A DNA stretch of 35,125 bases from a virus (Duplodnaviria > Caudoviricetes), in IMG/VR virus record IMGVR_UViG_3300017754_001394, positions 1-35,125 of that record. The stretch is one strand, 5' to 3'. Below, one piece after another: positions 6 to 33,686 of this stretch. Each line of letters begins with the position of its first letter. The first letter of the stretch is position 1. The notes beneath the pieces were generated by a model. It was not told the DNA's origin. It ran no database searches and saw nothing but the letters and a program-made list of their open reading frames with translations. Both the position numbers and the translations under genes were made by a program.

Positions 6-11
6 TATTTA
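6..11 (-). promoter_or_regulatory. TAAATA late-type promoter core for the next gene (beyond the window edge)
   Basis: Minus strand reads gaTAAATAcatat directly after the capsid terminator; same motif recurs at many junctions. Confidence 0.6.
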
Positions 12-18
12 TCAAACG

Positions 19-44
19 AAAAAAGCTCCCGAAGGAGCCTTTTT
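19..44 (-). terminator. Rho-independent terminator after major capsid gene
   Basis: Minus strand GCUCC-UUCG-GGAGC followed by U6; a T-run on the other flank makes it potentially bidirectional. Confidence 0.85.
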
Positions 45-74
45 CTAATCGAGTTTCTTTACACTCGTTACCAA

Positions 75-2843: not shown

Positions 2844-5126
2844 TTAACTGTAGACTTTAGGATCTCCCTGAGCTAAAGCCATGTAGTCTAATTGAGTTTC
2901 AGCATCTTGTCCTGAAACTTCCATTTGAATTTGATTAGCTTTAACTTGATTCAACATAGCTGTACTCAAGTCTTTCTTGTCTGTTGGGCTAGGTTCTTTG
3001 TTTTTCATAGATTCGTTAGCTTGTTTAATCATAGCCATAACTTCATCGTCTGATGGTAGATACGAATTACAATCTTTAACACCTAACACATACAATGTAT
3101 CAGCAAATGGTTTCTTAATCTTTTTATAGATATCAGGAGTCAATGTACCTGAAGTTACCATACTTTGTGTAGTTGTGTACAAGTCAGCTTGGCACTTTTG
3201 AATAATCTGCAAACGACCTAATGCGTTTTCTTCACTATTCATACCTAATGCTAGTTCTAAATGAATCTGTTTTCTGTCGCAGAAGTTCATGTCGTCCCAT
3301 GCTTTAAAGTCTAAGAACTCAGGCTTCTTGTCTGGGTGAGTTGTTTGAGCTAATTTCTTAACACCATAATCATCACCATATTGAATCAATGTACGCCATA
3401 CTAACCATAACGCTTCACGTAGACCTTCAGCACTGTTACGAACTGTGTTGTCTTGAATGATTTGGTTAGGAGTTAATGCAAGTTGTAATTTAACACCACT
3501 GTTACCAGCAGCCATTACTTCTGGGTTGAATACATCTGTAGGACTAGTCATACCAACCATAGCCATTGTATCTTGTTGGATACGATTCATAGCTACTTCT
3601 AAGAACTGTAAGTTACCTGAAGGAGGTGGAACTTGATATACGTCAGTTGCTGGATTAAACTTACTATCTAAAATAAAGATAGCTGCTTCGCCGTCTTGTA
3701 ACATCTCAAAGTCTAATCTGTCTGGCTTAACACCTAAACGAGGTGTTGCTGTTAATAATCCCAGTTGGATCTCTGCCCTTGCAGCGCTGGTGTTGTATTC
3801 TTGCATAGGGATTACTGATTCAGCAATACTCATGCCATAGAAGTTGCCTGGTAGGGGCTTGGGACACATGTTAGCAACTGGGATAAACTCTACTTCACGT
3901 GCCGAAATGATGTATGAACCACTGTAGATTAATTCTACTAGTTCTAATTCACCGTCGCCATCAATGTCATACTTGTTCCAAACAGTAACAACTGAAACTT
4001 GTTTACTATCTGGGTCAGCACTACTTGCTGAACTGACAGGAATACCCATGACTGGTACTGAGTCACGTGCGTGAATAGCTAAGTTGTTTAGTACTGAACC
4101 TGCTTGATAAGCACCGTTCATGTTATACTCGGCGTGTGTTCTGAATTCTTCTAAGTTAATATCTGGATACAATTCCATTGCTTCTTGAATGGTCATTGGA
4201 TCATAGTAACCACAGAAAGGTTGATCCTTCATCTCTGGTACAGTTGGATCACAGATCCAGTAGTGTTGAGCAATAGGGTGGAACTTAATGTTTATACCAT
4301 ACCCGGTCAACTTATACTTTGCTGAATAGATTGAGTTGCGACTAATACTATCATTCAACATTTGCTGTTCACCGTCGAGTTGCTGAGTCTCTAACCCAGC
4401 AGTATTAGATTCCATCAATCCGTCCATATCGTCGGGATTAGTAGTGCCTAGTTGGTCAACAAAACCACCAACCATTTCTTGTGCTAAGCCTTGATTGAAT
4501 TCTTTAGTTGAGCCTTGCATCTCTTTCCAGACTTTTTCAATCTCAACTTTAACTCTACGGCGTGATTGACGTAATGCAGTTAAACCACCTTCAGCAGCTT
4601 GTGCTTCAAATGCTTTAAGTTGTTCTAAAGTACCTTCTGTTTCAACATAACGTGTAATCTTTTCACGCACTGGCTTAATCATCATCATGCCGTTTTTGTG
4701 CATAGCACTGTCCATGATCCAGCGCTCTAAGATAAAGTGCGGGTCGTTCATTTGATTGACGACTTTGGAAACCATTTCAGTGGCTTGACGGGCAGCAGTT
4801 TCATCCATTTCACCGTCAGCTACAAACTCAAAGTTGATTTCACCGTTAGGCATCAAACCTTTAGCAATAACAGCAGTAGCGTAATCAACTACAGGCTTGA
4901 CACTAGGGTGAATATAGTCAATACCATTAACAGGAGCTGTACTGTCAGTGACAGCAAGACACAAATAATGATAATCACTAGCTCTGTTAACTGCATTCTT
5001 AGTTCCAAGATAACGAAGATATGAAGCCATCTTCACATCCATTAAATTCTTCATCCGTACAAAGCGTTCGTTAATCTTGCGATTCTGATTAATGTCGTCA
5101 ACGGGAATATTCTTAATATCTAGCAT
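2844..5126 (-). CDS. Portal protein (P22/SU10-like)
   Basis: 760 aa after terminase; features such as DIDGDGELEL, PLPGNFYGMSIAE and a helical C-terminus fit podovirus portals. Confidence 0.85.
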   Translation of the reverse strand: MLDIKNIPVDDINQNRKINERFVRMKNLMDVKMASYLRYLGTKNAVNRASDYHYLCLAVTDSTAPVNGIDYIHPSVKPVVDYATAVIAKGLMPNGEINFEFVADGEMDETAARQATEMVSKVVNQMNDPHFILERWIMDSAMHKNGMMMIKPVREKITRYVETEGTLEQLKAFEAQAAEGGLTALRQSRRRVKVEIEKVWKEMQGSTKEFNQGLAQEMVGGFVDQLGTTNPDDMDGLMESNTAGLETQQLDGEQQMLNDSISRNSIYSAKYKLTGYGINIKFHPIAQHYWICDPTVPEMKDQPFCGYYDPMTIQEAMELYPDINLEEFRTHAEYNMNGAYQAGSVLNNLAIHARDSVPVMGIPVSSASSADPDSKQVSVVTVWNKYDIDGDGELELVELIYSGSYIISAREVEFIPVANMCPKPLPGNFYGMSIAESVIPMQEYNTSAARAEIQLGLLTATPRLGVKPDRLDFEMLQDGEAAIFILDSKFNPATDVYQVPPPSGNLQFLEVAMNRIQQDTMAMVGMTSPTDVFNPEVMAAGNSGVKLQLALTPNQIIQDNTVRNSAEGLREALWLVWRTLIQYGDDYGVKKLAQTTHPDKKPEFLDFKAWDDMNFCDRKQIHLELALGMNSEENALGRLQIIQKCQADLYTTTQSMVTSGTLTPDIYKKIKKPFADTLYVLGVKDCNSYLPSDDEVMAMIKQANESMKNKEPSPTDKKDLSTAMLNQVKANQIQMEVSGQDAETQLDYMALAQGDPKVYS

Positions 5127-5149: not shown

Positions 5150-5278
5150 TTATTTAGTCTTTGTAGAATCTTCTGTTTTTGCTGGCTTTTCTTCTTTATC
5201 TTTCTTACCAAAGATTAAATCCCAGTTATCATTAACTTTTTGTTTGTCTTCTTTTCTACGTGCTGAGCCTTTTCCCAT
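5150..5278 (-). CDS. Small basic hypothetical protein (42 aa, not in ORF track)
   Basis: Hand translation MGKGSARRKEDKQKVNDNWDLIFGKKDKEEKPAKTEDSTKTK; AAGGA RBS; fills the terminase-portal gap. Confidence 0.7.
   Translation of the reverse strand: MGKGSARRKEDKQKVNDNWDLIFGKKDKEEKPAKTEDSTKTK
5151..5156 (-). promoter_or_regulatory. TAAATA late-type promoter core upstream of portal
   Basis: gacTAAATAatag, 24 nt before the portal ATG. Confidence 0.6.
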
Positions 5279-5286: not shown

Positions 5287-6897
5287 TTAATTAGCTGAGT
5301 ATGCTTTTTTCCAAGCAGGTTTAGTGCTGTCATCTCTTATTATATATCTGTCTCTTTGTGCAGCCATGCGTTGTGCAGGTGTTCTATCGTCCCATGGTTC
5401 TGCTATGCCCTGAAGACATGCAAGAATACCATAACGACAGCTATCAATGCAATCGTCAGGATCGCTAAAGCGTCCCTTTTCATCTACGAAGTAGTTCTGT
5501 GCTTCACTTAGGAAATGAGTACAGTTCTCGTTAACCATTAAACTTCCAACTTCTAGCATCTGACGCATTTGGTTGATACCATATGCTTTGTGATTAGTAA
5601 CTCGTCCCTGACTATCAGGTGGATTCATAATCGCTTTTTCATACACATTAAGTTGATACTGTTCAAACAACTCTCTAATTGAGTTTGACGACATTGTATA
5701 TCGTCCAGCTGTAAAAGCATCTGCCGGAAGAACGATTGGGGTTCCATAGACTTCTGGTCTAAGTAAGTGATTGATGTACTGTGTTGGCACAGCTTCTTCA
5801 ATACCTTGAACAACGATTTGTCTATGTAAGTACGCAGTACGTTCATGCGGTTCCCAGTATATTAAACTAATAACAGTCTTGTCATTCACTAGACCTAAGT
5901 CAAGAGAAATAACTCTATGAATGTTATGCATAGTATTAAAGTCAATCTCACCTGTCTTATAGGTAGGCCAACTATTAAGCTGAAATACTGCGCCTTTACC
6001 CATAACAGGTTTACCAGCAATCCGTGCTTCACGTTCATGTGGAAGATAATCTTTCTCTAATTGTCGTCTAGTACTATTTAACAGAAACGCTTGTCCCCAT
6101 GGATCATATTCAGGACAATCATCCCATGATACACGAACATACTCGTATCCTTCTTCTTTGTTCCAGAACTTACTTACTAGCCCGTTCAAACCTTTTAATG
6201 GTGTGAAAGAACATAATACTTTACCTTGTGTTGTAGCAGTACGTGTAACGATTTCTGAGAAGAAGTCATCCGGTGGTTGCTCATCGAACACAGCTAGGTT
6301 CAGTTTAAAACCTTGTAACTGTCGAACTTCCTGTGTGTAGTTTGCAAACAATAGGTAAGATTTAGCTCCTGACACATGTTTGATTTCCACACCGATACAG
6401 TTCGCTCCATCACTACGCATAGTATCAGTAACAATACAATGTCTTGGAATCGCACCTGTGCCTATATTCTCTCTGATTTTAATATCTTGTGTGCCTAGTA
6501 GTTCGTTCTGAAGTACTAATGCAACCTGTGACCAACCCTCACCTGCTACCATGCAAGTAATAGGTTTATCGAATCTGTAGCCATTCCACCATTCAGGATA
6601 AATGCCCGTTAAGTGACATGCTGTTTCAAAGCAAGTACTAACTGTTTTACCAATACGGTTTGCAGCTAGAATACCTCTACGTTCTGAATTACCTGTAGCA
6701 AAGAACTTTAATTGATGGTCGAAGGGTCGAAAGTATTTCAATTGATTGAATCGCATGTCTTCACATACTTCAATCGATAAATCTTCTAATTGACTTCTTA
6801 ATGGACCTGGAATGGTCGGTAGACTTTCAACTGTTAAATTGTTTTTGTCTACCGCCCATCTTAAAGCACGAGCCATTAAAGTCTCTGTGCCTATCAT
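5287..6897 (-). CDS. terL: Terminase large subunit
   Basis: 536 aa; Walker A AANRIGKT, Walker B LAVFDE, motif III SFTP, nuclease acidic residues in SLDLG and DDCID. Confidence 0.92.
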   Translation of the reverse strand: MIGTETLMARALRWAVDKNNLTVESLPTIPGPLRSQLEDLSIEVCEDMRFNQLKYFRPFDHQLKFFATGNSERRGILAANRIGKTVSTCFETACHLTGIYPEWWNGYRFDKPITCMVAGEGWSQVALVLQNELLGTQDIKIRENIGTGAIPRHCIVTDTMRSDGANCIGVEIKHVSGAKSYLLFANYTQEVRQLQGFKLNLAVFDEQPPDDFFSEIVTRTATTQGKVLCSFTPLKGLNGLVSKFWNKEEGYEYVRVSWDDCPEYDPWGQAFLLNSTRRQLEKDYLPHEREARIAGKPVMGKGAVFQLNSWPTYKTGEIDFNTMHNIHRVISLDLGLVNDKTVISLIYWEPHERTAYLHRQIVVQGIEEAVPTQYINHLLRPEVYGTPIVLPADAFTAGRYTMSSNSIRELFEQYQLNVYEKAIMNPPDSQGRVTNHKAYGINQMRQMLEVGSLMVNENCTHFLSEAQNYFVDEKGRFSDPDDCIDSCRYGILACLQGIAEPWDDRTPAQRMAAQRDRYIIRDDSTKPAWKKAYSAN

Positions 6898-7244
6898 TAC
6901 TCTGTCTCAACTGGGTAGTGTTGGTTCATAATACTCAAGTAGTATAAACCATGAGCTAAGTCTTTAATTTCACCAGCATTACAATCCCATGTTTCAGGGT
7001 TTGACAAATCTGTTGGCTTCTTAGTTAGTATAGCTTGAAGTCGTTCTGCTGTAAGACGCATACAGTGTTCTACTTGACCTGGAAAGCGTTCTTTAAATGC
7101 TTCACGGTGAACTTTGTTGACTTTCTGAAGAATCTTAGTTTCTTGAAACATAATATCTTCTTTCTTCTTAACAGCATCACGTACTTCGTCCTTAGCGACA
7201 CGAATGATTTTACGTTCGTTACCATTTTTATCTAAGATAGGCAT
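6897..7244 (-). CDS. Hypothetical protein coupled to terL (115 aa from ATG 7244)
   Basis: ATG one base after the upstream stop is more plausible than the track's start at 7277; its stop overlaps the terL start (TAATG). Confidence 0.7.
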   Translation of the reverse strand: MPILDKNGNERKIIRVAKDEVRDAVKKKEDIMFQETKILQKVNKVHREAFKERFPGQVEHCMRLTAERLQAILTKKPTDLSNPETWDCNAGEIKDLAHGLYYLSIMNQHYPVETE

Positions 7245-7245: not shown

Positions 7246-8052
7246 TTACTTATCCAAGTCCCATGGGTTATTAGCAACTGTGTCGTTCAATGAAACGAAT
7301 TCACGGTCGATCCATACTTCCCATTGATTAGTGTTGTTAACTCTGAATGTTTGCATCGTTGCACGTAGGCGTTTACCTTGTGGTGTCAATGTGCCATCTT
7401 CACGCATAACAACTTGTTCACCTGTACGTGGATCAACCCATTTGATAACTTCAGGGCGAGTGCGACCGAACTTGTCAATCTTTTCACCGAATGGTTTCTG
7501 TTCCAATGGACCTAAGATATCGTATGAAATCATACCATTCTTGTACTTGCGAAATAGCATGTGAACTTTCTTATCTTGGGCGCGTTGTTCTGCATCTGGA
7601 TGCGGGATAACAGGGCTGAAGAATACGTTTTGAACTTGATTGCGGTCTGGTAGTGATTCGTCACGCTTAGGTACTTCTTTGATTGGATCAATAGGTACTA
7701 GTTCTGTTCTGTCGATATATGGGTTGTCAGTACCTAGGAACACTGGATCAATATCTTCTCCATTGAGAACATCCATTGCAACTTGATACTTTAGTTTGTT
7801 TGCACGACCTTTTAAGTTTAGAACAATACCTGTTTCGTCATAAACAAATCGTTCTAGTTCTTTCGCTGTTGGAAAGTCGGTCATTAAGCCTTCTAAGTCA
7901 AACTGAACGTTTGATGTGGCTTTTGGTGCTTGTGGCTTTTTTACTTTACTGATATCTGGAATCTCTTGTTTAATAGATTCTACAACAGCTTCTTTTACAT
8001 CTGTTGTTGTATCCCAAATATCTTCGGATGGTGTTATTTTCTTTTTAGTCAT
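7246..8052 (-). CDS. Hypothetical protein
   Basis: 268 aa ORF with AAGGA RBS, in the terminase operon; no family recognised. Confidence 0.8.
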   Translation of the reverse strand: MTKKKITPSEDIWDTTTDVKEAVVESIKQEIPDISKVKKPQAPKATSNVQFDLEGLMTDFPTAKELERFVYDETGIVLNLKGRANKLKYQVAMDVLNGEDIDPVFLGTDNPYIDRTELVPIDPIKEVPKRDESLPDRNQVQNVFFSPVIPHPDAEQRAQDKKVHMLFRKYKNGMISYDILGPLEQKPFGEKIDKFGRTRPEVIKWVDPRTGEQVVMREDGTLTPQGKRLRATMQTFRVNNTNQWEVWIDREFVSLNDTVANNPWDLDK

Positions 8053-8127: not shown

Positions 8128-8133
8128 TATTTA
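8128..8133 (-). promoter_or_regulatory. TAAATA late-type promoter core
   Basis: aaaTAAATAgc overlapping a stop codon, 5 nt before the first leader hairpin. Confidence 0.55.
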
Positions 8134-8764: not shown

Positions 8765-9051
8765 TATTCGTTACCTTTCGTAGGACCGCGACCATAGTTA
8801 AATGATTCTTTACCGCGCTTTGGCATTTCTTTTGTGCCGCCGGGAGTACGTACTTGAGGATTGTGACAACCCATAATCATATCTTTATCAGCAGGTACTT
8901 TTGTACCGCCGCCAGTTGGACCACGACCCTTATTAATAAGAGCACCGTCATTGGCTTTACCTGTATACTCGTTTACACATTGACCTGTCTTACTGCGAGA
9001 ATAACCTGCGCCGCCCTGACCGTTAAATGCTAATCCTGAATTTTCTTTCAT
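8764..9051 (-). CDS. Small Gly/Lys-rich protein
   Basis: 95 aa with two GRGPT motifs; start and stop overlap neighbours. Confidence 0.7.
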
Positions 9052-9197
9052 TTTGTTTTTCCTTTAGATTTTTTCGCCGCTTGTTTTTTAACGGCATAAC
9101 CAATGGCGACGGCTTGTTTCACTGGCTTTCCTGCTTTAACTTCTGTAGCAATGTTTTTACTCAATGCTTTTTTGCTTGTTGATTTCATTAATGGCAT
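9048..9197 (-). CDS. Small basic protein (49 aa, not in ORF track)
   Basis: Hand translation [49 protein letters not shown]; ATGA overlap with next gene; KQAVAI-type peptide of the kind seen near phage head genes. Confidence 0.75.
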
Positions 9198-9201: not shown

Positions 9202-9207
9202 TATTTA
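9202..9207 (-). promoter_or_regulatory. TAAATA core, probable leaderless start
   Basis: gacTAAATA-gatt-ATG; only 4 nt to the start codon. Confidence 0.6.
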
Positions 9208-9549
9208 GTCTTTCTTTAAACCTGTCAGCTTCGCTAATGCTTCTGCGAACGCTGCTTGTTTAGCTTCAATAGCATCTTGAGGTTCTGTAATCTCAATCTT
9301 TGCTAATGATGTCATAACTTTGTTCAATATCAAATTATGATATTTGACTGTTAGTTGACTATCTCCACGAGTTCTAGCTTGTAAGAAGTCTTCAACTAAT
9401 AATGTTTCATATGGCTTGCCACCTGACTTATCTTTAAGTGCTGATAGCAAACCGTCAATTGTAACTTGTTCGGTCGAGCCTTTCTTGCGACCCGAGCCAG
9501 GACGTGGACCGCCGCGACCCTTTTTCTTTTCTGTTGTATTCTTTTCCAT
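9205..9549 (-). CDS. Putative terminase small subunit
   Basis: 114 aa; GRGGPRPGSGRKKGS basic N-terminal motif followed by helices, typical of many TerS proteins. Confidence 0.55.
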   Translation of the reverse strand: MEKNTTEKKKGRGGPRPGSGRKKGSTEQVTIDGLLSALKDKSGGKPYETLLVEDFLQARTRGDSQLTVKYHNLILNKVMTSLAKIEITEPQDAIEAKQAAFAEALAKLTGLKKD

Positions 9550-9554: not shown

Positions 9555-9560
9555 TATTTA
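9555..9560 (-). promoter_or_regulatory. TAAATA core, probable leaderless start
   Basis: ggaTAAATA-tagac-ATG (5 nt spacer). Confidence 0.6.
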
Positions 9561-9568
9561 TCCTCTAT

Positions 9569-9574
9569 TAAATA
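9569..9574 (+). promoter_or_regulatory. Divergent TAAATA core for the plus-strand GNAT-like gene
   Basis: atTAAATAgtag, 19 nt before ATG 9594, back to back with the minus-strand motif. Confidence 0.55.
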
Positions 9575-20940: not shown

Positions 20941-21005
20941 TTTGTCAAACGAAGTCCCCGGTCTGAACCCCGGGGCTTCATCTCAGGTTCAGCGAGATTG
21001 ACAAA
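20941..21005 (+). ncRNA. Three-way-junction structured element with kissing loops
   Basis: P1 tttgtcaa/ttgacaaa; P2 gaag(t)ccccgg/ccggggcttc; P3 tctc/gaga; loops ctgaacc (20963-20969) and ggttcag (20986-20992) are exact complements. Confidence 0.65.
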
Positions 21006-21039
21006 GATGACAAGGAAACAAATTTTATAGGAAATGAAT

Positions 21040-22724: not shown

Positions 22725-24295
22725 TAGATAAAGATAAAGAGAAGAAGCTAGCAGAGATGCGTAGAAATCTCAATAAAACCAGAGACGAGGTTTTATCGCC
22801 GAAGTTAGCTCTTTTTACTGAAGAAAAGAAGCAAGTTAGACCACGTTCAGAGATTTTAGCCGAAGTTAAAACAGACAAATTAAAGTTCAAGTTTTTACCC
22901 CCTTTGCTATCATACACTATGCTAGCACTAAAAGAGATTAATAATGTACCAGAAGAGATGGCTATTCAAGCTATCTTAGGAACTGTGAACTTCGCTACCC
23001 AGAGTCTGTATAACGTAGATCCTGTGTTCTTTGGCGGTGCAATCATTCCCACAACAGACTATTTCATCGCATTAGCGCCCACAGCTGGTATGAAAAGTAC
23101 AGTTTACAAGATGTTGGATCATGGTATCAAACGATTCGAAGAAGATGAGAAAGTTAGATATGGTAATGAAATTCAAGTGTATAAACTAGCACATGCTATT
23201 TGGTCTAAAGAATACGAGAAGCTAGAAAAGACACTGACTCCTGAAGACTTGAAAGATAAAGATAGATTCGATGCATTAGTATCTTCAGTTGGACCAGAGC
23301 CACAGAAGCCAGCTAGCTTTAAGTATAGATTGAGTACAGGTACAAGAAACGGTTTAATTGACTTCTTATCTAATGTACCACATGGTGGTATGAGTAGTAG
23401 TGAAGCTGGTGAATTCTTTAATGGTCATGCATTCCAAGAAGGTAAGAACAACTCAAAGGGATTTGAGATGATTACTACATTGACTAACTTGTGGGATGGA
23501 GCACCGATCGAAAAGAACACAGGCGTAGATGTAAAGAGTATCCAGAATCGTAGATTCACAATGCTATTTCTATTACAGAAAGCGATGGCTAAAGATTGGT
23601 TAGGTAACAAATTGTATAGTGAACAGGGATTCGTACATCGTTTGTTGATTACGCATTGTGATTACTGGGATGTACCTGAGATGGATCGTACCAGAGTCCC
23701 AGACTTGAAAGCTAGTCAACAAAAGCTAGTTATGTTCCATGATAGAATCTATGAACTACTGAAGAAAGATAGACAGTTCAGAGAAGATTCATCATTAGAA
23801 CTTGACTTGCCCATGATTCAAATGAGCAACGAAGCAATCGATAAACTAGCAGAGTTTGACAACCTAATCAAGAGAGAGCAGACTACAACATATGCAGAGT
23901 TTCAAGGATTTGTAGGTCGTTTATACGAACATTGTGTTCGTTTAGCCGCAACAGTTGCAATCTTTGACAATAGTAGTAAAATTGAGCTACGTCATGCAGA
24001 ATGTGCAATTGAATTAGGCTTCTTCTACCTAGAGCAGAGAATGACATTAGACTTGGGAGCTAACACAAAGTACGCTAACCAAGTGTCGATTGCTGAGAAA
24101 CTGACGTTTGAGATTATTAAGAAGATTCGTTCGGGAGTTACGATTGACAAGAAATGGTTAAGTCAATCAAGTCCTGCATACTTCAGAGGATTAAGCAGAG
24201 ATGAACGTCATAAGATTATAGAAGAAGTTATCAGTAGAGGTACACTGAAACAAGAGAAAGTAAATAACGTAACAGTTATGTCCATTATAGAATAA
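22721..24295 (+). CDS. DUF3987/YfjI-type P-loop helicase-like replication protein
   Basis: 524 aa; APTAGMKS Walker A variant, SSEAGEFF, LWDG, GFVHRLL, RLYEHCVRLA; coupled to the primase. Confidence 0.75.
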   Translation: MIDKDKEKKLAEMRRNLNKTRDEVLSPKLALFTEEKKQVRPRSEILAEVKTDKLKFKFLPPLLSYTMLALKEINNVPEEMAIQAILGTVNFATQSLYNVDPVFFGGAIIPTTDYFIALAPTAGMKSTVYKMLDHGIKRFEEDEKVRYGNEIQVYKLAHAIWSKEYEKLEKTLTPEDLKDKDRFDALVSSVGPEPQKPASFKYRLSTGTRNGLIDFLSNVPHGGMSSSEAGEFFNGHAFQEGKNNSKGFEMITTLTNLWDGAPIEKNTGVDVKSIQNRRFTMLFLLQKAMAKDWLGNKLYSEQGFVHRLLITHCDYWDVPEMDRTRVPDLKASQQKLVMFHDRIYELLKKDRQFREDSSLELDLPMIQMSNEAIDKLAEFDNLIKREQTTTYAEFQGFVGRLYEHCVRLAATVAIFDNSSKIELRHAECAIELGFFYLEQRMTLDLGANTKYANQVSIAEKLTFEIIKKIRSGVTIDKKWLSQSSPAYFRGLSRDERHKIIEEVISRGTLKQEKVNNVTVMSIIE

Positions 24296-24304: not shown

Positions 24305-24790
24305 ATGGCTAAATTCAAAATCAGATACGTAAAGTTCGTATTCACACCCAAACTCAATCGAGGTAATGATTGGGCAACACCCCCAGACGTTAAGATAGGA
24401 TTCGGATCCAGACACACAGATGAATGGAACGAGTACATGTTCAACAGCAACCATATTAGTATCATCTTTAGTGACTTCTTGAACGGTGACCCACGCAGAT
24501 ACAAGAAACATGCAAAGTTTACCGAAAGCGAAGCAGCAATACTATTACTACAGTACCTAGAAGATAACTTAAAAGATGCTAGAAAGCAAAAGAGAGAGTT
24601 GTATACTACCCTCGAAAGAGTAGAACAATATGGAGTAAACCCGTATAGTCAAGGTAAGATGTGGGAATACTCATTGATGGTTAACAAAAGAGAAATAGAA
24701 TATCATCAAGCAGCCTGTAAGATATGGCGCAAGAAAGTACGTGAGATGAAAAAGAGTAAAGAATACATGTGGGAGCAACTAGCAAAATGA
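24305..24790 (+). CDS. Hypothetical protein
   Basis: 161 aa, AAGGA RBS, basic helical C-terminus. Confidence 0.75.
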   Translation: MAKFKIRYVKFVFTPKLNRGNDWATPPDVKIGFGSRHTDEWNEYMFNSNHISIIFSDFLNGDPRRYKKHAKFTESEAAILLLQYLEDNLKDARKQKRELYTTLERVEQYGVNPYSQGKMWEYSLMVNKREIEYHQAACKIWRKKVREMKKSKEYMWEQLAK

Positions 24791-25059: not shown

Positions 25060-25084
25060 AAAAACCCGCATTAAGCGGGTTTTT
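25059..25084. terminator. Bidirectional Rho-independent terminator
   Basis: A6-cccgc-attaa-gcggg-T5 where plus and minus operons converge. Confidence 0.85.
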
Positions 25085-25182
25085 CTTTGGAGTTAATGAA
25101 ATGAAAGTGTAGAGGACGCATAAAGGAAATTACGAAATGGCATTATCGTTTGCGGATACTTTATGAAAAAACATCCTCTACA
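25059..25182 (-). ncRNA. Candidate ~125-nt small RNA
   Basis: Starts 4 nt after a TAAATA; 11-bp stem (25172-25182 with 25108-25118, one U-G pair valid only on the minus strand), inner 7-bp stem (25159-25165 with 25119-25125); ends at the terminator. Confidence 0.55.
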
Positions 25183-25185
25183 AAA

Positions 25186-25407
25186 CTATTTATTCCTGTT
25201 GCGACCGTCTAACTTTTCCTCAATACGAAACAATTGTTTCTCAATCTTGTCCATAGCTTTGACAGTGTTATCTGAGCTATTGATAGCTACAGCAAGCTGC
25301 TTGTCGATACTATCGACTTTGCTATTCAGTGCAGCATAGCCGCCCGAACCTACTGTAGCTAAACTAACTACTAACCAACTTAGTTGTGTTGTTGAAAAAT
25401 CAATCAT
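25186..25407 (-). CDS. Small membrane protein with coiled coil (holin/XhlA-like candidate)
   Basis: 73 aa; N-terminal hydrophobic helix then heptad repeats; last gene of the tail block. Confidence 0.55.
   Translation of the reverse strand: MIDFSTTQLSWLVVSLATVGSGGYAALNSKVDSIDKQLAVAINSSDNTVKAMDKIEKQLFRIEEKLDGRNRNK
25187..25192 (-). promoter_or_regulatory. TAAATA core driving the candidate sRNA
   Basis: gaaTAAATAgtt; no ORF downstream, only the hairpin and terminator. Confidence 0.5.
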
Positions 25408-25574: not shown

Positions 25575-28500
25575 TTATCCTGATACAGTCCAACCCTTAC
25601 CAATCGCTTGGTTAGTGTTTAAGTTACGTGCAGTTAGTGTTGCAGCCGCGTTAGTAATACCACACACACCACTAATGATAACGTTAGCGTTAGCGTTAAC
25701 AGTTACAACTTGATTGCTTATAGTTGCGCCGCCAATAGTCATAACACCAGTACCGTTTGTTACTAAGTTGATAGCTGCGCCGCCTGCAGCCGTAGATACT
25801 TGGAATGTAGTACTAGTTCTACCTACCACGTAGTACGTAGTGTTGATTACAATACCAGTTGTAGTAGTAATAGCAGTAAATCTAACCATATCACCGTTAG
25901 CCAAACCGTTTAAACCGCCGCCGTTAGTATACACAACTGTATTCGCAGCATCGTTAAACGTGACAGGGATACCTGTATTCATGCCAGTACCATATAAGAA
26001 TGTACCTGTCAATACACCAACAGTGTTAGCCATTGTAACTACGTTAGATCCAGCAGTTGTACCACTTGTTTTAGCGTTGGCAATATCGGTGCCTGGGTTA
26101 CTACTAATAGAAATAGTCTGTGCAGTTGTTACCGGTATTAATGTGTTAGCAAAAATACTTTCCATTTCTGTTTTACCAAAACTACATGTAGCAACTGTAA
26201 ATGTAAACCTAGCATTACTTACATTCGATAATTTACTTAATGAAGGTGTGTTAACAAATGTTAATGTGGCCGCCGCCACTGCCACATTACCTAAGTTAAT
26301 ATTACTAATATCAACTAATGAACTTGCAACTTGAAACATTGTTGAAAAGTTAGCCACAGCATTAGTACCAAGGTTAGCAAAATTTAATGAATTGAAGCCA
26401 CTGCTGTTAGCAAATGAAATTGTACTAGTACAATTGACTAAATTTAACGTAGGTAAATTAGTCAAAGAACTACAGGTTTGAAACATTGAAGCAGCATTAT
26501 TAACTTTACTAGTATCAATAGGAGGCATTGAAGATAAACTTCTAGCAGCGTTGCACATATTATATGCGTTCGTAACATTACTAGTATTTAAGTTTGCAAT
26601 TGTTTGTACTTTGCTGTTTGCAAACATACTTGACATATCAGTTACATTACTAGTATCAAACGCTGGTATAGAAATGATTGATGAGTTTGAAAATGTGTTG
26701 GACATGTTAGCCACTTTACTAGTATTGATAGTTGGGATATCAAGTAATCTACTAGTACCAGAGAAAGTATAAGCCATATTAGTAGCATTACTTGTATTAA
26801 TATTAGGAACTACTTTAATGCCACTATTAGCAAACGTATTGGTAAAATTGGTACAATTTATGGTATTAATATTTGCAATAGTAACTAAATTAGTAGTGTT
26901 ACTAAATGCGTTTGCTAATGTTGTTACATTACTCATATTAAACTGAGGTATAGTAGTTAAACTACTACATGAACTAAATGCATTTGTAAAGGTAGCAACG
27001 TTAGTAAAGTTAAACAGTGGCACTGAAACTAAGTTAACACAACCGTTAAACATACTTGTTGTGTTTGTGGCTTTACTAGTATTATATAATGGTACAGTTG
27101 TTAAACCGGAACAACCATTAAACATCGAAATAAAGTTAGTAACGTTACCAGTGTCAAAAAATGGTACGTTGTCACTTGTTAATGAAACACAGTTGAAAAA
27201 CATACTTGAAGTACTAACAATGTTAGTAGTATTAGTAGGAGCTTTTACTACTCTTAACGCAGTACAACCGCTAAACATGGTACCAGGATCAGTTAATGCT
27301 GTTGTGGTAGTTATTGTAGGGGCAACTTCTAAAGAAGTACATCCAGTAAACATACCATTTATGTTAGTCACAGAGGGCAAATAGTAATCAGGACAATATA
27401 ACAAGCTGGTGCAACCATTAAACATAGTTGTAGCTAATATTGCGACACTAGTATTAGTAGTGCTTAACGCAGGAGCGGATATTAATCCGCTGTTACTAAA
27501 CATACTAGTCATGTCAGTAATTTGAATATTAGGATCTATAACAACGTTTTGCAAACTTCTTAAGTTAGCGAATGTTGAGTTAAAGGTAACTATTTGCTCT
27601 GCAGGACCAGGGACTGTAATTTGCTCTAGCATATACAATGGTGAAGTACTATTACTGTTTATTACAAATGCTTCACCTGGTAAGTTAATACTCATGTCTA
27701 ACCATCTAGCTGTATAGTTGTTCAATGTACCGCTGGTAGGAGTATATCTAACGTTGAAGTTGGCAGTCCCTATCCTTAAATTAGTATTCCAACTGGCGCC
27801 TACGCCACCATATGCATTAATAGTTACCGCCGCTGTTTTGTATCCGCGACTACATACAACTCCCGGCACACTAGAATAAACATAATTATGTTGCGCTTGT
27901 ACTGCGGTGTTAACTATATCAACTACACCATCTCCCCAATCCACTTGATAGTTTGCTGTAAGAGTCAAAGATGCGGGACTTATCAATGTATTAACTGTTT
28001 GACTAATGTTAACTGTAGCAGATATAGCTTGTCTGCTAGTCAATGTACCGTTGAAGCCACCTCCACCTACACATGTGTAGGTTCCAGTCCCACCTGTACC
28101 GGTTAAAAACGCACTAACATATTTTGTGCCACCAACAGCGTTAGTATAAAAAGCCGTGCCAACTACAATTGGGTCGCCGGTCATTGATGTAATAGTCAAT
28201 GTAGAAGTAGTAATATCAAAACTACCGTTAATTATACTGCTGTTAACTGAAGTAACATAGGTACCAGCAGCAACCCCGGTACCAGTTACTGATTGTCCAG
28301 TATAGATACCTGAATTCAGGGTACCGCCTGGTGTAGAAAAGGTTAAAGTAGTGCCTTGAATAGTTCCATCAGATGAAGTAAGATACGGGACTGTAACAGT
28401 ACAATTAAAAGCAACATAGTTACTACTCTGGTCATATACCGCATAGATACCTGTAGCATAATATGTGTCAGCTACTGTAGGTAATGCAGTCCAATCACTA

Positions 28501-28610
28501 GGTCTTGTATACGTAGTTGGCGTATTGTATGGAGTTGGATTCAACTGAGGCTGTAGAATGTTTCTACGACCGTTATTAATTAAATTCTGCTCTAATGTGG
28601 TGCTAGCCAT
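25575..28610 (-). CDS. BspA/DUF285-like repeat protein, putative receptor-binding protein
   Basis: 1011 aa; many ~22-25 aa repeats of the type dTsnvtnmssMFxxCxsLxxvP; PKD-like VDWGDG. Confidence 0.75.
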   Translation of the reverse strand: MASTTLEQNLINNGRRNILQPQLNPTPYNTPTTYTRPSDWTALPTVADTYYATGIYAVYDQSSNYVAFNCTVTVPYLTSSDGTIQGTTLTFSTPGGTLNSGIYTGQSVTGTGVAAGTYVTSVNSSIINGSFDITTSTLTITSMTGDPIVVGTAFYTNAVGGTKYVSAFLTGTGGTGTYTCVGGGGFNGTLTSRQAISATVNISQTVNTLISPASLTLTANYQVDWGDGVVDIVNTAVQAQHNYVYSSVPGVVCSRGYKTAAVTINAYGGVGASWNTNLRIGTANFNVRYTPTSGTLNNYTARWLDMSINLPGEAFVINSNSTSPLYMLEQITVPGPAEQIVTFNSTFANLRSLQNVVIDPNIQITDMTSMFSNSGLISAPALSTTNTSVAILATTMFNGCTSLLYCPDYYLPSVTNINGMFTGCTSLEVAPTITTTTALTDPGTMFSGCTALRVVKAPTNTTNIVSTSSMFFNCVSLTSDNVPFFDTGNVTNFISMFNGCSGLTTVPLYNTSKATNTTSMFNGCVNLVSVPLFNFTNVATFTNAFSSCSSLTTIPQFNMSNVTTLANAFSNTTNLVTIANINTINCTNFTNTFANSGIKVVPNINTSNATNMAYTFSGTSRLLDIPTINTSKVANMSNTFSNSSIISIPAFDTSNVTDMSSMFANSKVQTIANLNTSNVTNAYNMCNAARSLSSMPPIDTSKVNNAASMFQTCSSLTNLPTLNLVNCTSTISFANSSGFNSLNFANLGTNAVANFSTMFQVASSLVDISNINLGNVAVAAATLTFVNTPSLSKLSNVSNARFTFTVATCSFGKTEMESIFANTLIPVTTAQTISISSNPGTDIANAKTSGTTAGSNVVTMANTVGVLTGTFLYGTGMNTGIPVTFNDAANTVVYTNGGGLNGLANGDMVRFTAITTTTGIVINTTYYVVGRTSTTFQVSTAAGGAAINLVTNGTGVMTIGGATISNQVVTVNANANVIISGVCGITNAAATLTARNLNTNQAIGKGWTVSG

Positions 28611-28937
28611 TTATGTTAGCTCCGTACCAAACAATCCAAAAGATACAGTGCTTGTGCCTGCATAACATGTTACAACGTCAGTGTTTGCTAATGAAACACC
28701 TATAGTTAAAAACAATGTATCATTGCCATTCACTACAGCATCGTATACCACATACTGACTACTAGTTAATGTTGCGCCCGCAGGTCTAATTGCCAAACGA
28801 ATGTTTGTAGTTACGCCCTGATTACATGCAGTTAATGTACTTGCTACTGCGCCATTGGCAGTACCACATGTGTACAATGTAGTTGCTGTGTTTGCTGTTG
28901 GGATTGATTGTCCCAACACTTTGTAAATATTTGCCAA
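28611..28937 (-). CDS. Small beta-rich virion protein
   Basis: 108 aa, YKVLGQSxPxAxTxTTLY N-terminus; TTG start one base after the upstream stop. Confidence 0.7.
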   Translation of the reverse strand: MANIYKVLGQSIPTANTATTLYTCGTANGAVASTLTACNQGVTTNIRLAIRPAGATLTSSQYVVYDAVVNGNDTLFLTIGVSLANTDVVTCYAGTSTVSFGLFGTELT

Positions 28938-28938
28938 T

Positions 28939-31900
28939 TTAGGCTCCCATCATTAAAAATACGTTTTCAAATCCAGATGAAGCTCCGCCACCACCTGATT
29001 GATTTACGAAACTTAAATTACCAGTTCCGTCAGTCTGAATAACTTGTCCTGTGCTACCACCTGTTATTTTAACAGTAGTAACAGCACCTAGACTTATGTT
29101 ACTTCCGTTCCATGTAACAGTACTTATGCCGCCCATAGAACCGTTGTTATTGAATTGTATTTGAGTGTTAGCACCACCTGGAGTAGCAGTACTTGTAATA
29201 CCTGTCAATGCAGATCCATTACCGATAAAGTAATCGCCTGTAATGTTACCAGTAGCAGTTAAACTAGTTAATGTACCTAAGCTAGTAATGTTAGGTTGCG
29301 CTGCGGTAGTTACTGTACCTGCTGTAGTAGCTGATCCACTAGTAACTGCATATGTTGCATTTGCTACTGTACCGGACACATTAGCACCAGCTACGCTATT
29401 AGCTACCGCTGCAAATGCAACTTCGCCAGAAACGTTAGCACCTGCTACTGAGTTAGCAGTCGTTGCAAAAGCAACAGGACCACTGACGTTACTACCTGTA
29501 ACACTAAACGCATTACCTGCAAAGTTAGCGTAGTTAGCGTTCGCTACGTTTCCTACTGAAGGAGCAGCAGCAAATACACCGTTACCATACAAGATATTGC
29601 TCAAGTTACCATCTAAGTTAACAGTTGCAATGTTACCAATACCTGATACGTTTGCAACAGCTACGCTGTTTGCAGTTGTTGCATATGTAACTGCACCTGA
29701 CACGTTAGCGCCAGCTACTGAGTTTGCGACAGCAGCGAATGATACTTGACCACTTACGTTAGCACCTGCTACACTATTAGCAACAGCAGCGAATGGCACC
29801 TGTCCAGTTACGTTAGCACCAGTCAAGCTAGTTAAACCACTACCGTTTGCAATGATGTTAGTTACTGTTAATGTGTTCGATGTTTTGTCGAATGCAAAGT
29901 TTGCACTAGCACCCAAACTACCATTGTCATTAAATTGAACTTGTGTATTAGCACCTGCAGGAGTTGCAGTAGCAGTGATACCTGTCAGTGCAGAACCGTT
30001 ACCGATAAAATAATTACCAGTTACGTTACCGTTTAAGTTAACTGTAAACTTGTTTGTACCGTTTACATGGAAACGAGCAAACAATGCGTTAGCATTACTA
30101 GCTGCGTTGTTAGTATAAACACTAAGCAAGTTAGCATTACTGCCTAACGCTAACCCGCCAGGGGCTGCAATAGACACTATACCAGCGTTAGCATTACTAC
30201 CAGACGCAATAGCAAAACTTGCAACTGCACCAGCCGCCGCCACTGTGTTTGAAACAGAAAGATATGTTAGTGTACCTAAATCTGTAATGTTAGGTTGACT
30301 ATTACCAGTTACAGTAACAGCAGTTGAAACAGTACCATTTACGTTACCGACAGTTAGTGTGTTTGTTGTCTTATCGTATGTAAATTGACTGTTTGCTCCA
30401 GTTACGCCGCCGTCATTGAACTGAATATATGTGTTAGATCCAGCAGGAGTTGCAGTAGATGTAACACCTGTTAATTGACTACCGTTACCGATGAAGAACT
30501 TAGCACGAATATTACCTGTAGGTGTTACGTTAGCTTGACTTACGCCGTTCTTTCTAAAGTCTAATAGTAGTGAGTTAGTGTTGTTTACGTTGCCGGCATC
30601 AACACCATCAACGATTAATGTTGTATAATTGACACTCGCATTGCCCCAAACTGGAGTTAACTGTGCAGCAGTGGCTGAAGTATTAGGAGTTGTTACAAAA
30701 AACGTACTAGTCAACGTACCCAAACTACTAATGTTAGGTTGTGCGTTTCCAGTAACAGTTACAGCAGTTGTTGCAGTACCTGCTGAACCAGTTGTCAATG
30801 CATATGTTGCATTAGCTACTGTACCAGTTACGTTAGCACCAGTGATACTAGTTAACAATGAACCGTTACCTGTAAAGAAATTACCTGTAACTAAGTTACC
30901 ACCATTGATGTTACCACTAGTAATGTTACCAGTTACACCTAAACTTGTTAATGTACCTACTGAATTAATGTTAGGTTGAGCATTAGTTGTTACTGTACCT
31001 GCCGTAGTTGCAGTTGTAGCGGTACCGGCACTAACTGCATATGTTGCGTTAGCAACAGTACCAGTGACGTTAGCACCTGTTAAACTAGTTAATAACGAAC
31101 CATTACCTGAATGATAGTTACCTAAGATTAAATTACCGCCGTTAATGTTACCACTAGTAATGTTACCTGTAACAGTTAATGATGTCAACGAACCTACACT
31201 TGTGATGTTTGGTTGTGCTGCTGTATATACTGTTCCAGCAATTAAACTGTTAGCAACTTGTCCACTAACGTTACTACCTGCTACGCTATTAGCGACTGCT
31301 GCAAAAGCAACTTGTCCACTAACGTTACTACCTGCTACCGAGTTTGCGACAGTAGCAAATGCTACAGGACCTGAAACGTTGCTACCTGTAACACTGAAAG
31401 CATTACCTGCATAGTTTGCATAGTTAGCGTTACCTGTAGTTGCTGTAATACCTGTTAGTAAACTACCGTTACCACTAAAATAGTTACCAGTTACTAAGTT
31501 ACCTAAAGTAGCATTGCCGCTGGTAATGTTACCTGTAACACTTAGACTACTTAATGTACCTACAGAAGTAATGTTAGGTTGAGCTGCGGTGTATACAGTG
31601 CCAGCGACTAAACTATTAGCTACCTGTCCAGATACGTTTGCTCCGGCTACACTGTTAGCAGTAGTCGCATAAGTTACTGCACCTGATACATTAGCGCCCG
31701 CAACTGAGTTAGCAACTGTTGCAAAGTTAGCTAAATTAACTGTACCTATAATGTTTGCTGCCGCAACACTGTTAGCTAAATCAGCTACGTTTGCATGTGT
31801 TGCATTACCAACAATACCAGTAACGTTTGCACCAGTAATTGATGTTAATAATGAACCATCACCACTAAAATAGTTACCAGCTACTAAGTTACCTAAACTT

Positions 31901-33663
31901 GCATTTCCACTTGTAATGTTACCAGTTACTGACAATGAAGTTAATGTACCAACACTTGTAATATTAGGTTGACTGCTAGTAATCACAGTACCAGCAAAGT
32001 TTGCATAATTTGCGTTAGCAGTACTAGGTGCAGCTACCCAAGCACCATTGCCTGCAAGTAATTGACTACCATTACCACTTAAGTTAATAGTTGCGATGTT
32101 ACCAATTCCAGTAACGTTAGCTACAGGTACGTTACCCGTCCACGCTGTTTGTTGAACTGTGGTATCTGGGAATGTTAAATTACTTCTATCAAATGACCAT
32201 GTTTTGAAGTCGCTGTTTGCAGTGTTGCTAAAGTCAACTTGTAAATAATCAGGATGTAATGTACTTCTACCAGACAACGGAGTACCTGCAGTAGGTTCAC
32301 CTGTAATTAATTCAACCTGTCCAAATTGACTGCTAATCGTAGCACCACTGTAATTAGCTTGAGTCCATTGTATACGACCATTGTCGTCACTGAAAGTTAA
32401 ACCAGTAGCACCTTGTACTCCAATGTTGCCGTTAGTAAGTAAGTCAATAGTATATAGTTGACCATATTGATCCATACTAGCCATATTAGCAACGTTAGAG
32501 TTTACAGGGTCGCTTAATAGATATGCAACGTTAGAGTATGCTGCAAAGTTAGCATTTGATACGTTACCTGAAATAGTAATGTTACTTAATAAGCCACCGT
32601 CACCTAAGAAGAAGTTGGCACTGACTGCATTACCCGCATAGACATCACCAGCAATACCTACACCACCACCAACACGCAATGCGCCAGTAGTTGTGTCTGT
32701 TGCTGCTGTAGTTGGTTCAATGTAGAACTGACTTTCTGCGTGAATAAAACGCATCTTTTCATCTATTGTTTGAAAGCCACCAGTTGCAAATACAATGTCT
32801 TTTGTACTACCCTGCGGACCTGTAGCAATAACTAAGTTACCACCGTTCGTAGATGTATCATCTCCTTGAACAAAGAAGTAACCATCGTTAATGCCTGTGA
32901 TTGTGTAAGTTGGGTCGCTGAAGTTAGATCCAGTAAAACCCATGTCAGCCCATGCACCACTATCAGAGCCATTATCGCCATATGTAACATAGTCGGCAGA
33001 ACCATCTGGACTTCCGTTAACAACAGCAGCTTGAACATAAGTTGCACCGCTTGCTTTTGCAATGATTGTTGGGTTAGTTAAGCCGGTAGCGTTTGCTGTA
33101 TAACCTACGTATACAGCAGCATTTGATTGAATGTTACCTTCAACATACAAGCTAGTTAAGTTACCTACACTAGTAATATTAGGTTGAGCACTATTAACAA
33201 CGTTACCTGCAAAGTTTGCATAGTTAGCATTTGCACCTGAGCCTCCACCTGGCGCAAATACACCATTACCATATAATACGTTTGAGTTTGAACCAGTTAA
33301 GTTAACAACGGCGATGTTACCAATACCACTTACGTTTGCTACTGACACACTAAAAGCGGTACCCGCAAAGTTTGCATAGTTTGCGTTAGCTGTATTGGGC
33401 AATGCACCCCAAGTGCCATTACCTAGTAATGTCTGACTCCCGTTCCCACTATAATTTGTTGTTGCGATGTTACCAATACCAACTACGTTTGCAACACTCA
33501 CTGAGTTTGCACTATCTGCAACGTTAGCATGTCCTGCGTTTGTTGCATAGTTAGCATTACCTACGTTTGGTAGGTATTCTGGTTTTACACTTGTGGGCGC
33601 ACCATTACCATCTACGTTTACGATTTGGTAAAAGTTACTATTAATTTCGCCTCTTGTTGTCAT
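28939..33663 (-). CDS. Long repetitive tail fibre protein
   Basis: 1574 aa, Asn/Gly/Ala/Thr/Val-rich; repeats AQPNITSVGTLTSL, ANSVAGANVSG, ANYANFAG, GxNTQIQFND, FxGNGSxLT. Confidence 0.8.
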   Translation of the reverse strand: MTTRGEINSNFYQIVNVDGNGAPTSVKPEYLPNVGNANYATNAGHANVADSANSVSVANVVGIGNIATTNYSGNGSQTLLGNGTWGALPNTANANYANFAGTAFSVSVANVSGIGNIAVVNLTGSNSNVLYGNGVFAPGGGSGANANYANFAGNVVNSAQPNITSVGNLTSLYVEGNIQSNAAVYVGYTANATGLTNPTIIAKASGATYVQAAVVNGSPDGSADYVTYGDNGSDSGAWADMGFTGSNFSDPTYTITGINDGYFFVQGDDTSTNGGNLVIATGPQGSTKDIVFATGGFQTIDEKMRFIHAESQFYIEPTTAATDTTTGALRVGGGVGIAGDVYAGNAVSANFFLGDGGLLSNITISGNVSNANFAAYSNVAYLLSDPVNSNVANMASMDQYGQLYTIDLLTNGNIGVQGATGLTFSDDNGRIQWTQANYSGATISSQFGQVELITGEPTAGTPLSGRSTLHPDYLQVDFSNTANSDFKTWSFDRSNLTFPDTTVQQTAWTGNVPVANVTGIGNIATINLSGNGSQLLAGNGAWVAAPSTANANYANFAGTVITSSQPNITSVGTLTSLSVTGNITSGNASLGNLVAGNYFSGDGSLLTSITGANVTGIVGNATHANVADLANSVAAANIIGTVNLANFATVANSVAGANVSGAVTYATTANSVAGANVSGQVANSLVAGTVYTAAQPNITSVGTLSSLSVTGNITSGNATLGNLVTGNYFSGNGSLLTGITATTGNANYANYAGNAFSVTGSNVSGPVAFATVANSVAGSNVSGQVAFAAVANSVAGSNVSGQVANSLIAGTVYTAAQPNITSVGSLTSLTVTGNITSGNINGGNLILGNYHSGNGSLLTSLTGANVTGTVANATYAVSAGTATTATTAGTVTTNAQPNINSVGTLTSLGVTGNITSGNINGGNLVTGNFFTGNGSLLTSITGANVTGTVANATYALTTGSAGTATTAVTVTGNAQPNISSLGTLTSTFFVTTPNTSATAAQLTPVWGNASVNYTTLIVDGVDAGNVNNTNSLLLDFRKNGVSQANVTPTGNIRAKFFIGNGSQLTGVTSTATPAGSNTYIQFNDGGVTGANSQFTYDKTTNTLTVGNVNGTVSTAVTVTGNSQPNITDLGTLTYLSVSNTVAAAGAVASFAIASGSNANAGIVSIAAPGGLALGSNANLLSVYTNNAASNANALFARFHVNGTNKFTVNLNGNVTGNYFIGNGSALTGITATATPAGANTQVQFNDNGSLGASANFAFDKTSNTLTVTNIIANGSGLTSLTGANVTGQVPFAAVANSVAGANVSGQVSFAAVANSVAGANVSGAVTYATTANSVAVANVSGIGNIATVNLDGNLSNILYGNGVFAAAPSVGNVANANYANFAGNAFSVTGSNVSGPVAFATTANSVAGANVSGEVAFAAVANSVAGANVSGTVANATYAVTSGSATTAGTVTTAAQPNITSLGTLTSLTATGNITGDYFIGNGSALTGITSTATPGGANTQIQFNNNGSMGGISTVTWNGSNISLGAVTTVKITGGSTGQVIQTDGTGNLSFVNQSGGGGASSGFENVFLMMGA

Positions 33664-33680
33664 GTTCTGTCCCTTTTATG

Positions 33681-33686
33681 TATTTA
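33681..33686 (-). promoter_or_regulatory. TAAATA late-type promoter core
   Basis: tcaTAAATAca overlapping a stop codon, followed by AAAGGGA RBS and the fibre ATG. Confidence 0.6.

Follow-up and report, generated by a model that had tools for sequence, protein, structure and literature searches.

TAAATA boxes in a freshwater podophage clade suggest late transcription by a jumbo phage sigma factor

How could a small podophage switch on its virion genes from promoters for which it carries no recognizable reader? The question is raised by IMG/VR record IMGVR_UViG_3300017754_001394, which was analyzed over its entire length of 35,125 nucleotides (nt) (hereafter, the window; linear class, 98% complete, not closed). 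Its gene families mark the window as a 35-kb podophage that encodes head, packaging, tail, and fiber proteins of its own, and the hexamer TAAATA stands at 15 of its gene junctions. A sequence-only reading had taken these boxes for T4-type late promoters and the phage for a bacterial counterpart of virophages, transcribed by the late machinery of a co-infecting T4-like phage. Our analysis indicates that the boxes are likely -10-only late promoters, a reading well supported by their position, register, clade-wide conservation, and avoidance in coding DNA. Their likely reader is a gp55-like sigma factor of jumbo phages related to PA5oct and CBB, rather than that of T4 proper.

The TAAATA box and its conservation

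All 18 TAAATA sites reported earlier were found in place and on the expected strands. Among the junction sites, nine (6, 2830, 9555, 9569, 14937, 17452, 20270, 20575, and 20887) are clear of stop codons, as had been claimed, and six (1287, 5151, 8128, 9202, 25187, and 33681) overlap one, counting a 43-amino acid (aa) gene at 5150–5278. Each box was said to point along the downstream gene or RNA where one is visible; that at 25187 precedes no gene and only a terminator-like hairpin. The site at 20887 is 141 nt from its gene. With 25 copies in the window against 38.9 ± 6.4 expected from shuffles, the hexamer is rarer than chance overall. The proposed strand-aware enrichment was borne out: for 12 of 34 genes a sense-strand TAAATA lies no more than 45 nt before the start, against three in antisense, and the word ranks first among all hexamers upstream of window genes (Fisher p = 1e-14). 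In 5000 dinucleotide shuffles of the upstream 45-nt stretches, the count averaged 2.8 and never exceeded 10. Synonymous-codon shuffles predict 23.1 ± 4.0 copies in window coding DNA, where four are present. Two copies of the full T4 octamer, TATAAATA, were found, which is the chance level.

The window belongs to a large freshwater clade of SU10-like podophages with genomes of 34–40 kb (clade A). Searching IMG/VR with its capsid retrieved 559 related stretches, of which the best 80 were kept. A set of 21 clade A genomes was assembled from the window and 20 of the longest records (eight with terminal repeats and thus closed; G018 minus its last 471 nt), with genes called by our own script independently of the motif. 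Each genome carries the box within 45 nt of 5–17 genes, with 0–3 in antisense. The boxes precede virion genes but also 52 of 313 accessory genes.

Spacing between box and start is bimodal across the 21 genomes. In a sharp class, 57 boxes have a spacing of exactly 5 nt; the other class is broad, at 15–30 nt, and 110 of its 131 boxes are separated from the start by a word resembling a Shine-Dalgarno (SD) sequence. Among 243 distinct SD-less starts, TAAATA occupies exactly -11 to -6 in 41, compared with eight that have a sigma70-type TAnnnT 5–7 nt upstream of ATG. The T4 octamer is positioned at -13 to -6 and Aeh1 uses CTAAATA from -12 (PMC1524935; this and the other cited papers are drawn on in excerpt). 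Set against the T4/Aeh1 register, the 5-nt class would place +1 on the A of the ATG; the core ends at -6 from SD-less ATGs, a position read from start codons and not from 5' ends. The clade consensus is weakly R(A/C)TAAATA, beyond which there is only AT-richness. Base frequencies over 45 nt upstream of 225 sites revealed no conserved -35 element or operator. This lack would argue against a promoter read by a host sigma plus activator, which would need an operator.

A sister clade provided a natural control. The capsid of MW202484 is 61% identical to that of the window, and this phage with its 80 best relatives constitutes clade B, which has the virion block in common with clade A. Conservation of the motif in relatives, one of the checks proposed earlier, is strong in clade A and nearly lacking in the sister clade: of 262 clade A starts belonging to five shared orthologues, 235 follow a box, compared with 2 of 277 in sister-clade loci (259 of 289 versus 2 of 297 over all markers, with starts that failed the alignment filter dropped and the loci being related rather than independent). 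In 79 further metagenome loci, which partly overlap the first set, the box precedes 141 of 175 starts. Ranked by avoidance in coding DNA, TAAATA comes second among 2073 hexamer pairs for clade A (148 versus 560 expected) and 915th among 2076 for the sister clade, whose most avoided word is the complement of TATAAT. A terminase tree (quick method, midpoint root) separates the two clades, although the direction of change is not readable from it. Clade A coding DNA also shows near-total avoidance of the palindromes ACGCGT, GTCGAC, AGCGCT, and TGCGCA and of AGCT-containing words, a possible signature of host restriction.

Candidate readers inside and outside the clade

The earlier observation that no sigma factor is visible in the window extends to the clade. 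PF04542 matched none of 24 records, and the gp55 families phrog_234 and phrog_12791 matched none of 22 clade records while detecting the T4 and PA5oct controls. Our own hidden Markov model (HMM), built from 11 jumbo phage sigmas and T4 gp55, was run on six-frame translations of the genomes and of 80 loci; apart from the jumbo control, no match scored under E = 3. HHalign over 199 clusters returned a best sigma probability of 11.6%, against 95.6% for the T4 control. Neither a sigma nor an activator nor an RNA polymerase emerged from scans of the window and clade A, and these profile searches give good support for the lack of a recognizable sigma in clade A (22 genomes, eight of them closed). 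Lacking gp55 and a T4-type myovirus virion, and having SU10-type capsid and portal, the window is not itself a T4-like phage. Every family shared by all eight closed genomes sits in the virion block, and none comes from the early region.

The box is found in larger phages that do encode a candidate reader, a gp55-like sigma. In the closed 372-kb jumbo phage genome G033, it precedes 71 of 445 genes (25 in antisense) and none of the 85 in the first 60 kb, and TAAATA ranks third of 1874 for avoidance in coding DNA. Among 56 G033 box genes scanned, those that could be named include terminase, tube, sheath, baseplate, fiber, and holin. Over 40 kb of PA5oct, TAAATA lies within 60 nt of 9 of 57 starts, with prefixes GA, GC, and CC. 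CBB carries ATAAATA before structural genes and encodes a gp55-like sigma, with no gp33 or gp45 detected according to the excerpted text (PMC5259590). Searches that recovered the T4 positive control likewise found neither gp33 nor gp45 in G033 or PA5oct. A jumbo phage sigma with no need of a clamp on the template could act on whatever DNA the cell contains. The reading of the boxes as -10-only late promoters stands, whereas the evidence points away from the proposed T4-type helper machinery (gp55, gp33, and gp45) and to PA5oct/CBB-like phages in which gp33 and gp45 were not found.

Shared genes link clade A to the same phages. A 90-aa accessory gene occurs in 12 of the 21 clade A genomes, the window not among them, and its only matches in 50,697 phage records are jumbo phages (11 PA5oct-group records, Atu_ph07, and Phosso). 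Homologues in IMG/VR include contigs of 58–372 kb, and 10 of the 15 largest contigs with the gene encode the jumbo late sigma phrog_12791. Across 52 loci with the gene, a few of which are small phages, no non-SD hexamer outranks TAAATA upstream of starts, and its spacing peaks at 5 nt. The family (e.g., L109:2559–2849 and L350:1063–1338) has 3393 database matches and is TAAATA-driven in PA5oct and G033. Its protein has a confident predicted alpha/beta model with no PDB match at E ≤ 0.001; the model matches only uncharacterized phage proteins, and the ESM Atlas returned unnamed viral clusters only. As a candidate replacement for gp33, the protein gained no support.

The 1574-aa fiber of the window matches a long protein in the fiber region of the sigma-bearing jumbo contig G066 (38% over 326 aa, E = 7e-18). 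G066 is matched by 14 clade A proteins, compared with two matches from the sister clade, both to a single protein of ~200 aa. Tetranucleotide similarity to jumbo phage DNA is weak (r = 0.30, 0.30, and 0.20 for clade A versus 0.12, 0.23, and 0.17 for clade B) and was not used. In contigs from RNA runs, the capsid and scaffold-like genes of relatives are covered in two freshwater runs, although transcription levels and starts are not readable from contigs; short fragments (80–90%) of sigma genes of the jumbo type occur in the same set of four runs, which indicates co-presence only and was not used as support. Small siphophage-like genomes (G069–G072, L396–L402; also L390) have the early module and accessory genes in common with clade A (the 90-aa gene, Prim-Pol, and Dps-like), with mixed box counts (5 of 40 genes in G072, 5 of 29 in G071, 1 of 35 in G069, and 1 of 20 in G070).

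Clade A also differs from its sister clade in lysis and replication. Only one of 21 clade A genomes yielded an endolysin (the M15 peptidase of G015), versus all 10 fetched sister genomes, and GH19 was found in none of 22 clade A records versus 11 of 26 sister records; each protein cluster was scanned through a single representative, leaving out open reading frames (ORFs) under 45 aa and five long proteins crossing a fetch boundary. A small holin-like gene appears to remain in some members. Three of the eight closed genomes (G005, G008, and G011; L083–L084 and L089–L092) gave no primase or helicase match. G008 has almost no early region, though an unclassified 376-aa ORF (L089:9623–10753) lies there. 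In other members the replication module is interchangeable, with DUF3987, DUF5906, or VapE helicases. The near-total loss of endolysins and the missing primase and helicase would further support dependence on another phage.

Early expression follows different signals. Of 313 accessory genes, 26 have a consensus TTGACA-17-TATAAT or extended -10 promoter upstream, compared with 3 of 415 core genes and none of 92 long genes, and such promoters of accessory or early genes often stand in tandem with TAAATA. In the early regions of G013, G005, G006, and G015, TAAATA falls within the sigma70 spacer or just downstream, as it does in PA5oct. Such ordinary early promoters imply an ordinary host housekeeping sigma and a small helper-independent early program. 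The notion that the phage is transcribed by a helper's late machinery survives as a likely account of the late boxes, which have no recognizable reader in the clade; with its own sigma70 early promoters, clade A is not wholly helper-transcribed.

Obligate dependence and its alternatives

We consider it probable that clade A is obligately dependent, with its boxes read by host RNA polymerase carrying a gp55-like sigma from a co-infecting PA5oct/CBB-like jumbo phage. In such a cycle, host sigma70 promoters would express a few small early genes after entry, together with a plasmid-like PrimPol/helicase replicon in members that have one. The virion genes would need no repressor to stay silent before the late sigma of the helper appears; the small phage would then build its own particles during the helper's late program and leave through lysis that is likely helper-supplied. 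Attachment to the jumbo virion, episomal persistence, and plain co-infection may each bring the two together. The PrimPol module with its repeats could maintain the genome as a silent episome, since promoters that only a helper can use need no repressor. With little better than even confidence, we go further and regard the clade as an obligate "bacterial virophage" that would build its own virion and parasitize only the late sigma and lysis of jumbo phages (in some members also replication). It would have arisen from an autonomous lambdoid-like ancestor by gaining helper promoters and losing the genes for lysis and recombination. The same strategy may have evolved convergently in unrelated siphophages.

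Several points weigh against dependence, which is deduced from genome content. The jumbo-derived 90-aa gene is missing from the window and 9 of the 21 genomes, and the window genome is not closed. In G033, the box also precedes the non-late genes for ribonucleotide reductase and a polymerase subunit. Given the sigma70 promoters before 26 of 313 accessory genes, a non-orthologous activator could hide among the small early ORFs, and G015 has an M15 peptidase of its own. T4-type activation requires a clamp loaded on the template (PMC7892883). Clade scans found no integrase, partition system, or integrated copy, and so offer no account of how so common a clade (559 loci) would last until it meets a helper. 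GTDB species genomes yielded only two short contigs from metagenome-assembled genomes (MAGs), and the best 80 metagenome loci included no host-sized contig. The helper could also be a classical T4-like phage of the Aeh1 type.

It is unlikely, though worth serious consideration, that clade A is autonomous and that an unrecognized protein of its own reads or activates TAAATA (a small core protein such as those encoded at 6897–7244 or 9205–9549, the Dps-like protein, or differing early genes), with lysis by an unrecognized or single-protein route. Kuravirus-type phages of the same capsid family do have their own sigma, phiEco32 gp36 being an example, and the abundance of the clade and its sigma70 early promoters would fit autonomy. 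Most clade proteins lack a family, and five clade-wide families (c9–c13) have no or one HMM match in the sister clade; however, no sigma-like profile match emerged, and the universal candidates belong to the block driven by TAAATA and are matched in position by genes of the sister clade, which lacks the motif. For the 268-aa core protein, prediction gives a small helical domain together with a beta-rich domain, an architecture that is not sigma-like; the protein had no usable match in the ESM Atlas, and its predicted fold had no PDB match at E ≤ 0.001. The closed genomes share no early gene, G008 is nearly without an early region, and an activator would lack an operator upstream of the box.

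Only marginally less likely is facultative use, in which sigma70 read-through supports a solo cycle and the boxes keep transcription on when a co-infecting jumbo phage shuts off host-sigma transcription. This account needs no obligatory co-entry and would suit both the frequent sigma70–TAAATA tandems before early genes and the one lysin-bearing member. Read-through would nevertheless have to supply core and long genes that are almost devoid of sigma70-type promoters, pass a terminator-like hairpin after the capsid gene, and serve divergent units that require their own promoters, in a clade where 20 of 21 genomes lack an endolysin.

Less probable again, and in our view quite doubtful, is a host-encoded alternative or split sigma-like factor that reads TAAATA without a -35 element. 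Noncanonical sigma-like host factors have been proposed: MtvS1/2 in Francisella, for which in vitro activation was not obtained (PMC13627669). The early promoters of clade A, however, indicate an ordinary housekeeping sigma, and TAAATA fits neither sigma70 register. Jumbo-type sigma was not found in 401 sampled genomes of the order of the Dechloromonas MAG G074, an order that is a guess at the host. A host sigma would also leave the endolysin loss and the shared jumbo genes unexplained.

That TAAATA arises incidentally from AT-richness at junctions and from TAA stops, as the 6 of 15 junction sites overlapping a stop might suggest, has a negligible chance of being correct given its fixed 5-nt spacing, its absence from sister-clade orthologues, its avoidance on both strands of coding DNA, and the far weaker enrichment of other AT-rich hexamers and single-base variants. 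An archaeal TATA box was rejected, as a spacing of 4–5 nt to the ATG does not fit one.

Gene content, known systems, and implications

Family scans of 35 window proteins identified SU10-type capsid and portal, terminase, tail and fiber genes, a Dps-like protein, and a Prim-Pol with DUF3987 helicase; none matched sigma, polymerase, integrase, or lysin families. Features are on the minus strand unless noted. The box at 6–11 lies 5 nt from the contig end; its gene (cluster 5), absent here, starts 5–7 nt past the box in relatives and would be leaderless (box in 67 of 72 relatives). In the missing part, relatives have two late genes (about 190 and 320–400 aa) and the start of a fiber gene. The SU10-type major capsid gene (75–1250; PF17236, E = 2e-36; phrog_1328) is followed by a terminator-like hairpin and preceded at 36 nt by a box that overlaps a stop codon (1287–1292). 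Position suggests that 1290–2450 encodes a probable scaffolding protein, with TAAATA 80 nt upstream (2531–2536). The box at 2830–2835 lies 22 nt before a 112-aa core gene (2469–2807; 59 of 77 relatives), and that at 5151–5156 lies 24 nt before the SU10-type portal gene (2844–5126; PF23899, E = 4e-45; 74 of 75 relatives). A 43-aa gene (cluster 17, 5150–5278) has a homologue in G033. Next come the terminase large subunit (5287–6897; PF03237, phrog_2) and the 268-aa core protein (7246–8052), which is common to the sister clade and has TAAATA upstream at 8128–8133.

The box at 9202–9207 precedes the ATG of 9048–9197 by 4 nt (leaderless). Divergent back-to-back boxes occupy 9555–9574: 9555–9560 (minus) is 5 nt before 9205–9549, and 9569–9574 (plus) is 19 nt before a 160-aa gene (9594–10076) that had no family match and whose product we take to be acetyltransferase-like. 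The Dps/ferritin-like protein (10068–10499; PF00210, phrog_3636) is present in 21 of 21 clade A genomes. Position and composition suggest four probable ejection or internal virion genes (10496–17433), with boxes at 14305, 14937, and 17452; the box at 14937 (18-nt spacing) is kept in 21 of 22 cluster members, the exception being MW202484 of the sister clade. In G005, a probable ejection protein (L084:2660–5782) has a weak HINT-domain match below the Pfam cutoff. Two tail genes (17462–20244; phrog_3287, virion structural) have a box at 20270 (25 nt). A Gly-rich tail gene had no match among cultured phages. One tail gene reaches 1674 aa in G017, compared with the usual size of about 630.

The box at 20575–20580 lies 4 nt before a 97-aa gene (20277–20570). 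About ten CTGCTAAC(T) repeats, direct and inverted (20584–20820), adjoin the PrimPol/helicase operon and are likely an iteron origin. On the plus strand, 20874–20892 holds an extended -10-like TGnTACAAT followed by TATAAATA at 20885–20892, probably tandem host-sigma70 and late promoters of the replication operon; the sigma70 scan listed no -35/-10 pair there. The operon leader (about 140 nt, 20880–21033, plus) has a GC-rich hairpin near 20950–20978, a fold z of -2.25 for 20760–21040, and no Rfam match. Prim-Pol and DUF3987 helicase (21804–24295, plus; PF09250, PF13148) form the replication module, which varies across the clade, and an intragenic box at 24261–24266 (plus) lies 38 nt before 24305–24790. 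A 73-aa protein with an N-terminal hydrophobic stretch (25186–25407) is possibly holin-like; box 25558 lies 150 nt upstream. The hairpin beyond box 25187 (near 25060–25085) is about 100 nt on, and this box may drive a short noncoding RNA (25060–25190, minus). The tail fiber/adhesin block (25575–35125) includes the 1574-aa fiber (28939–33663) with box 33681, 17 nt upstream; a fiber-domain search gave weak partial matches only. Rfam and tRNA scans found nothing.

Clade A boxes resemble T4-type late promoters (read by gp55; TATAAATA in T4, CTAAATA in Aeh1, ATAAATA in CBB/GAP32) in their TAAATA core, register to SD-less ATGs, lack of a -35 element, and placement before virion genes. They differ in standing in a genome without gp55 and in their first two bases, R(A/C), which are closer to the jumbo and Aeh1 variants than to T4. 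Virophages such as Sputnik and mavirus also combine their own virion genes with a helper-type late promoter and no polymerase or sigma of their own, and their genes carry the helper's late promoter (PMC6723459). Clade A is tailed, with an SU10 capsid, SD motifs, and sigma70 promoters that indicate a bacterial rather than eukaryotic host, it has no integrase, and its dependence on a helper is probable; it appears virophage-like in its working but not a virophage by descent, and lies outside Lavidaviridae. It carries its own virion genes (capsid, portal, terminase, tail, and fiber; an adaptor in relatives) and a late promoter common to co-occurring larger viruses whose reader it lacks.

P4 is activated by P2 Ogr, and helper-timed late expression likewise occurs in phage-inducible chromosomal islands (PICIs and cf-PICIs), PLEs, and I55; some clade A members also have a PrimPol/helicase replicon. 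PLE late expression is timed by the helper (PMC13595925), and I55 uses a jumbo helper (PMC12595487). These elements integrate and take capsid, tail, or both from the helper, whereas clade A encodes head and tail and has no integrase match; its full tail block excludes membership among P4, PICIs, cf-PICIs, and PLEs, and the earlier contention that it builds its own virion, unlike P4, PICIs, and PLEs, is upheld. MiniFlayer and MulchRoom, satellites of virulent Streptomyces-phage helpers, have their own capsid and packaging genes; MiniFlayer has no lysogeny module or primase, bears short tail fibers, and can solve co-entry by attaching to the helper virion, and the excerpted main text of its description does not use the word "promoter" (PMC10690885). 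At 15–17 kb they differ from the 35-kb window with its full podovirus tail block. A 2026 review names PLE, MiniFlayer, and I55 as satellites of large phages (PMC13359090). Among the titles and abstract openings of largely open-access papers, supplements excluded, we found no description of the clade or its mechanism. SU10/phiEco32-type podophages and the sister clade resemble clade A in capsid and portal families and in virion-block gene order; genomes of the sister clade encode Erf, SSB, RusA, replication initiators, and endolysins and show no TAAATA enrichment.

If this interpretation is correct, hundreds of ordinary-looking, complete phage genomes from lake metagenomes would be hyperparasites, which satellite screens based on gene content would miss because no structural gene is lacking. 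The virophage strategy would extend to bacteria, giving jumbo phages a common natural enemy, and promoter words could link uncultured parasites to their helpers. The motif-less, lysin-bearing sister clade would allow the passage from autonomy to dependence to be traced gene by gene, and the cultured jumbo phage PA5oct, which has the same sigma family, makes the core claim testable.

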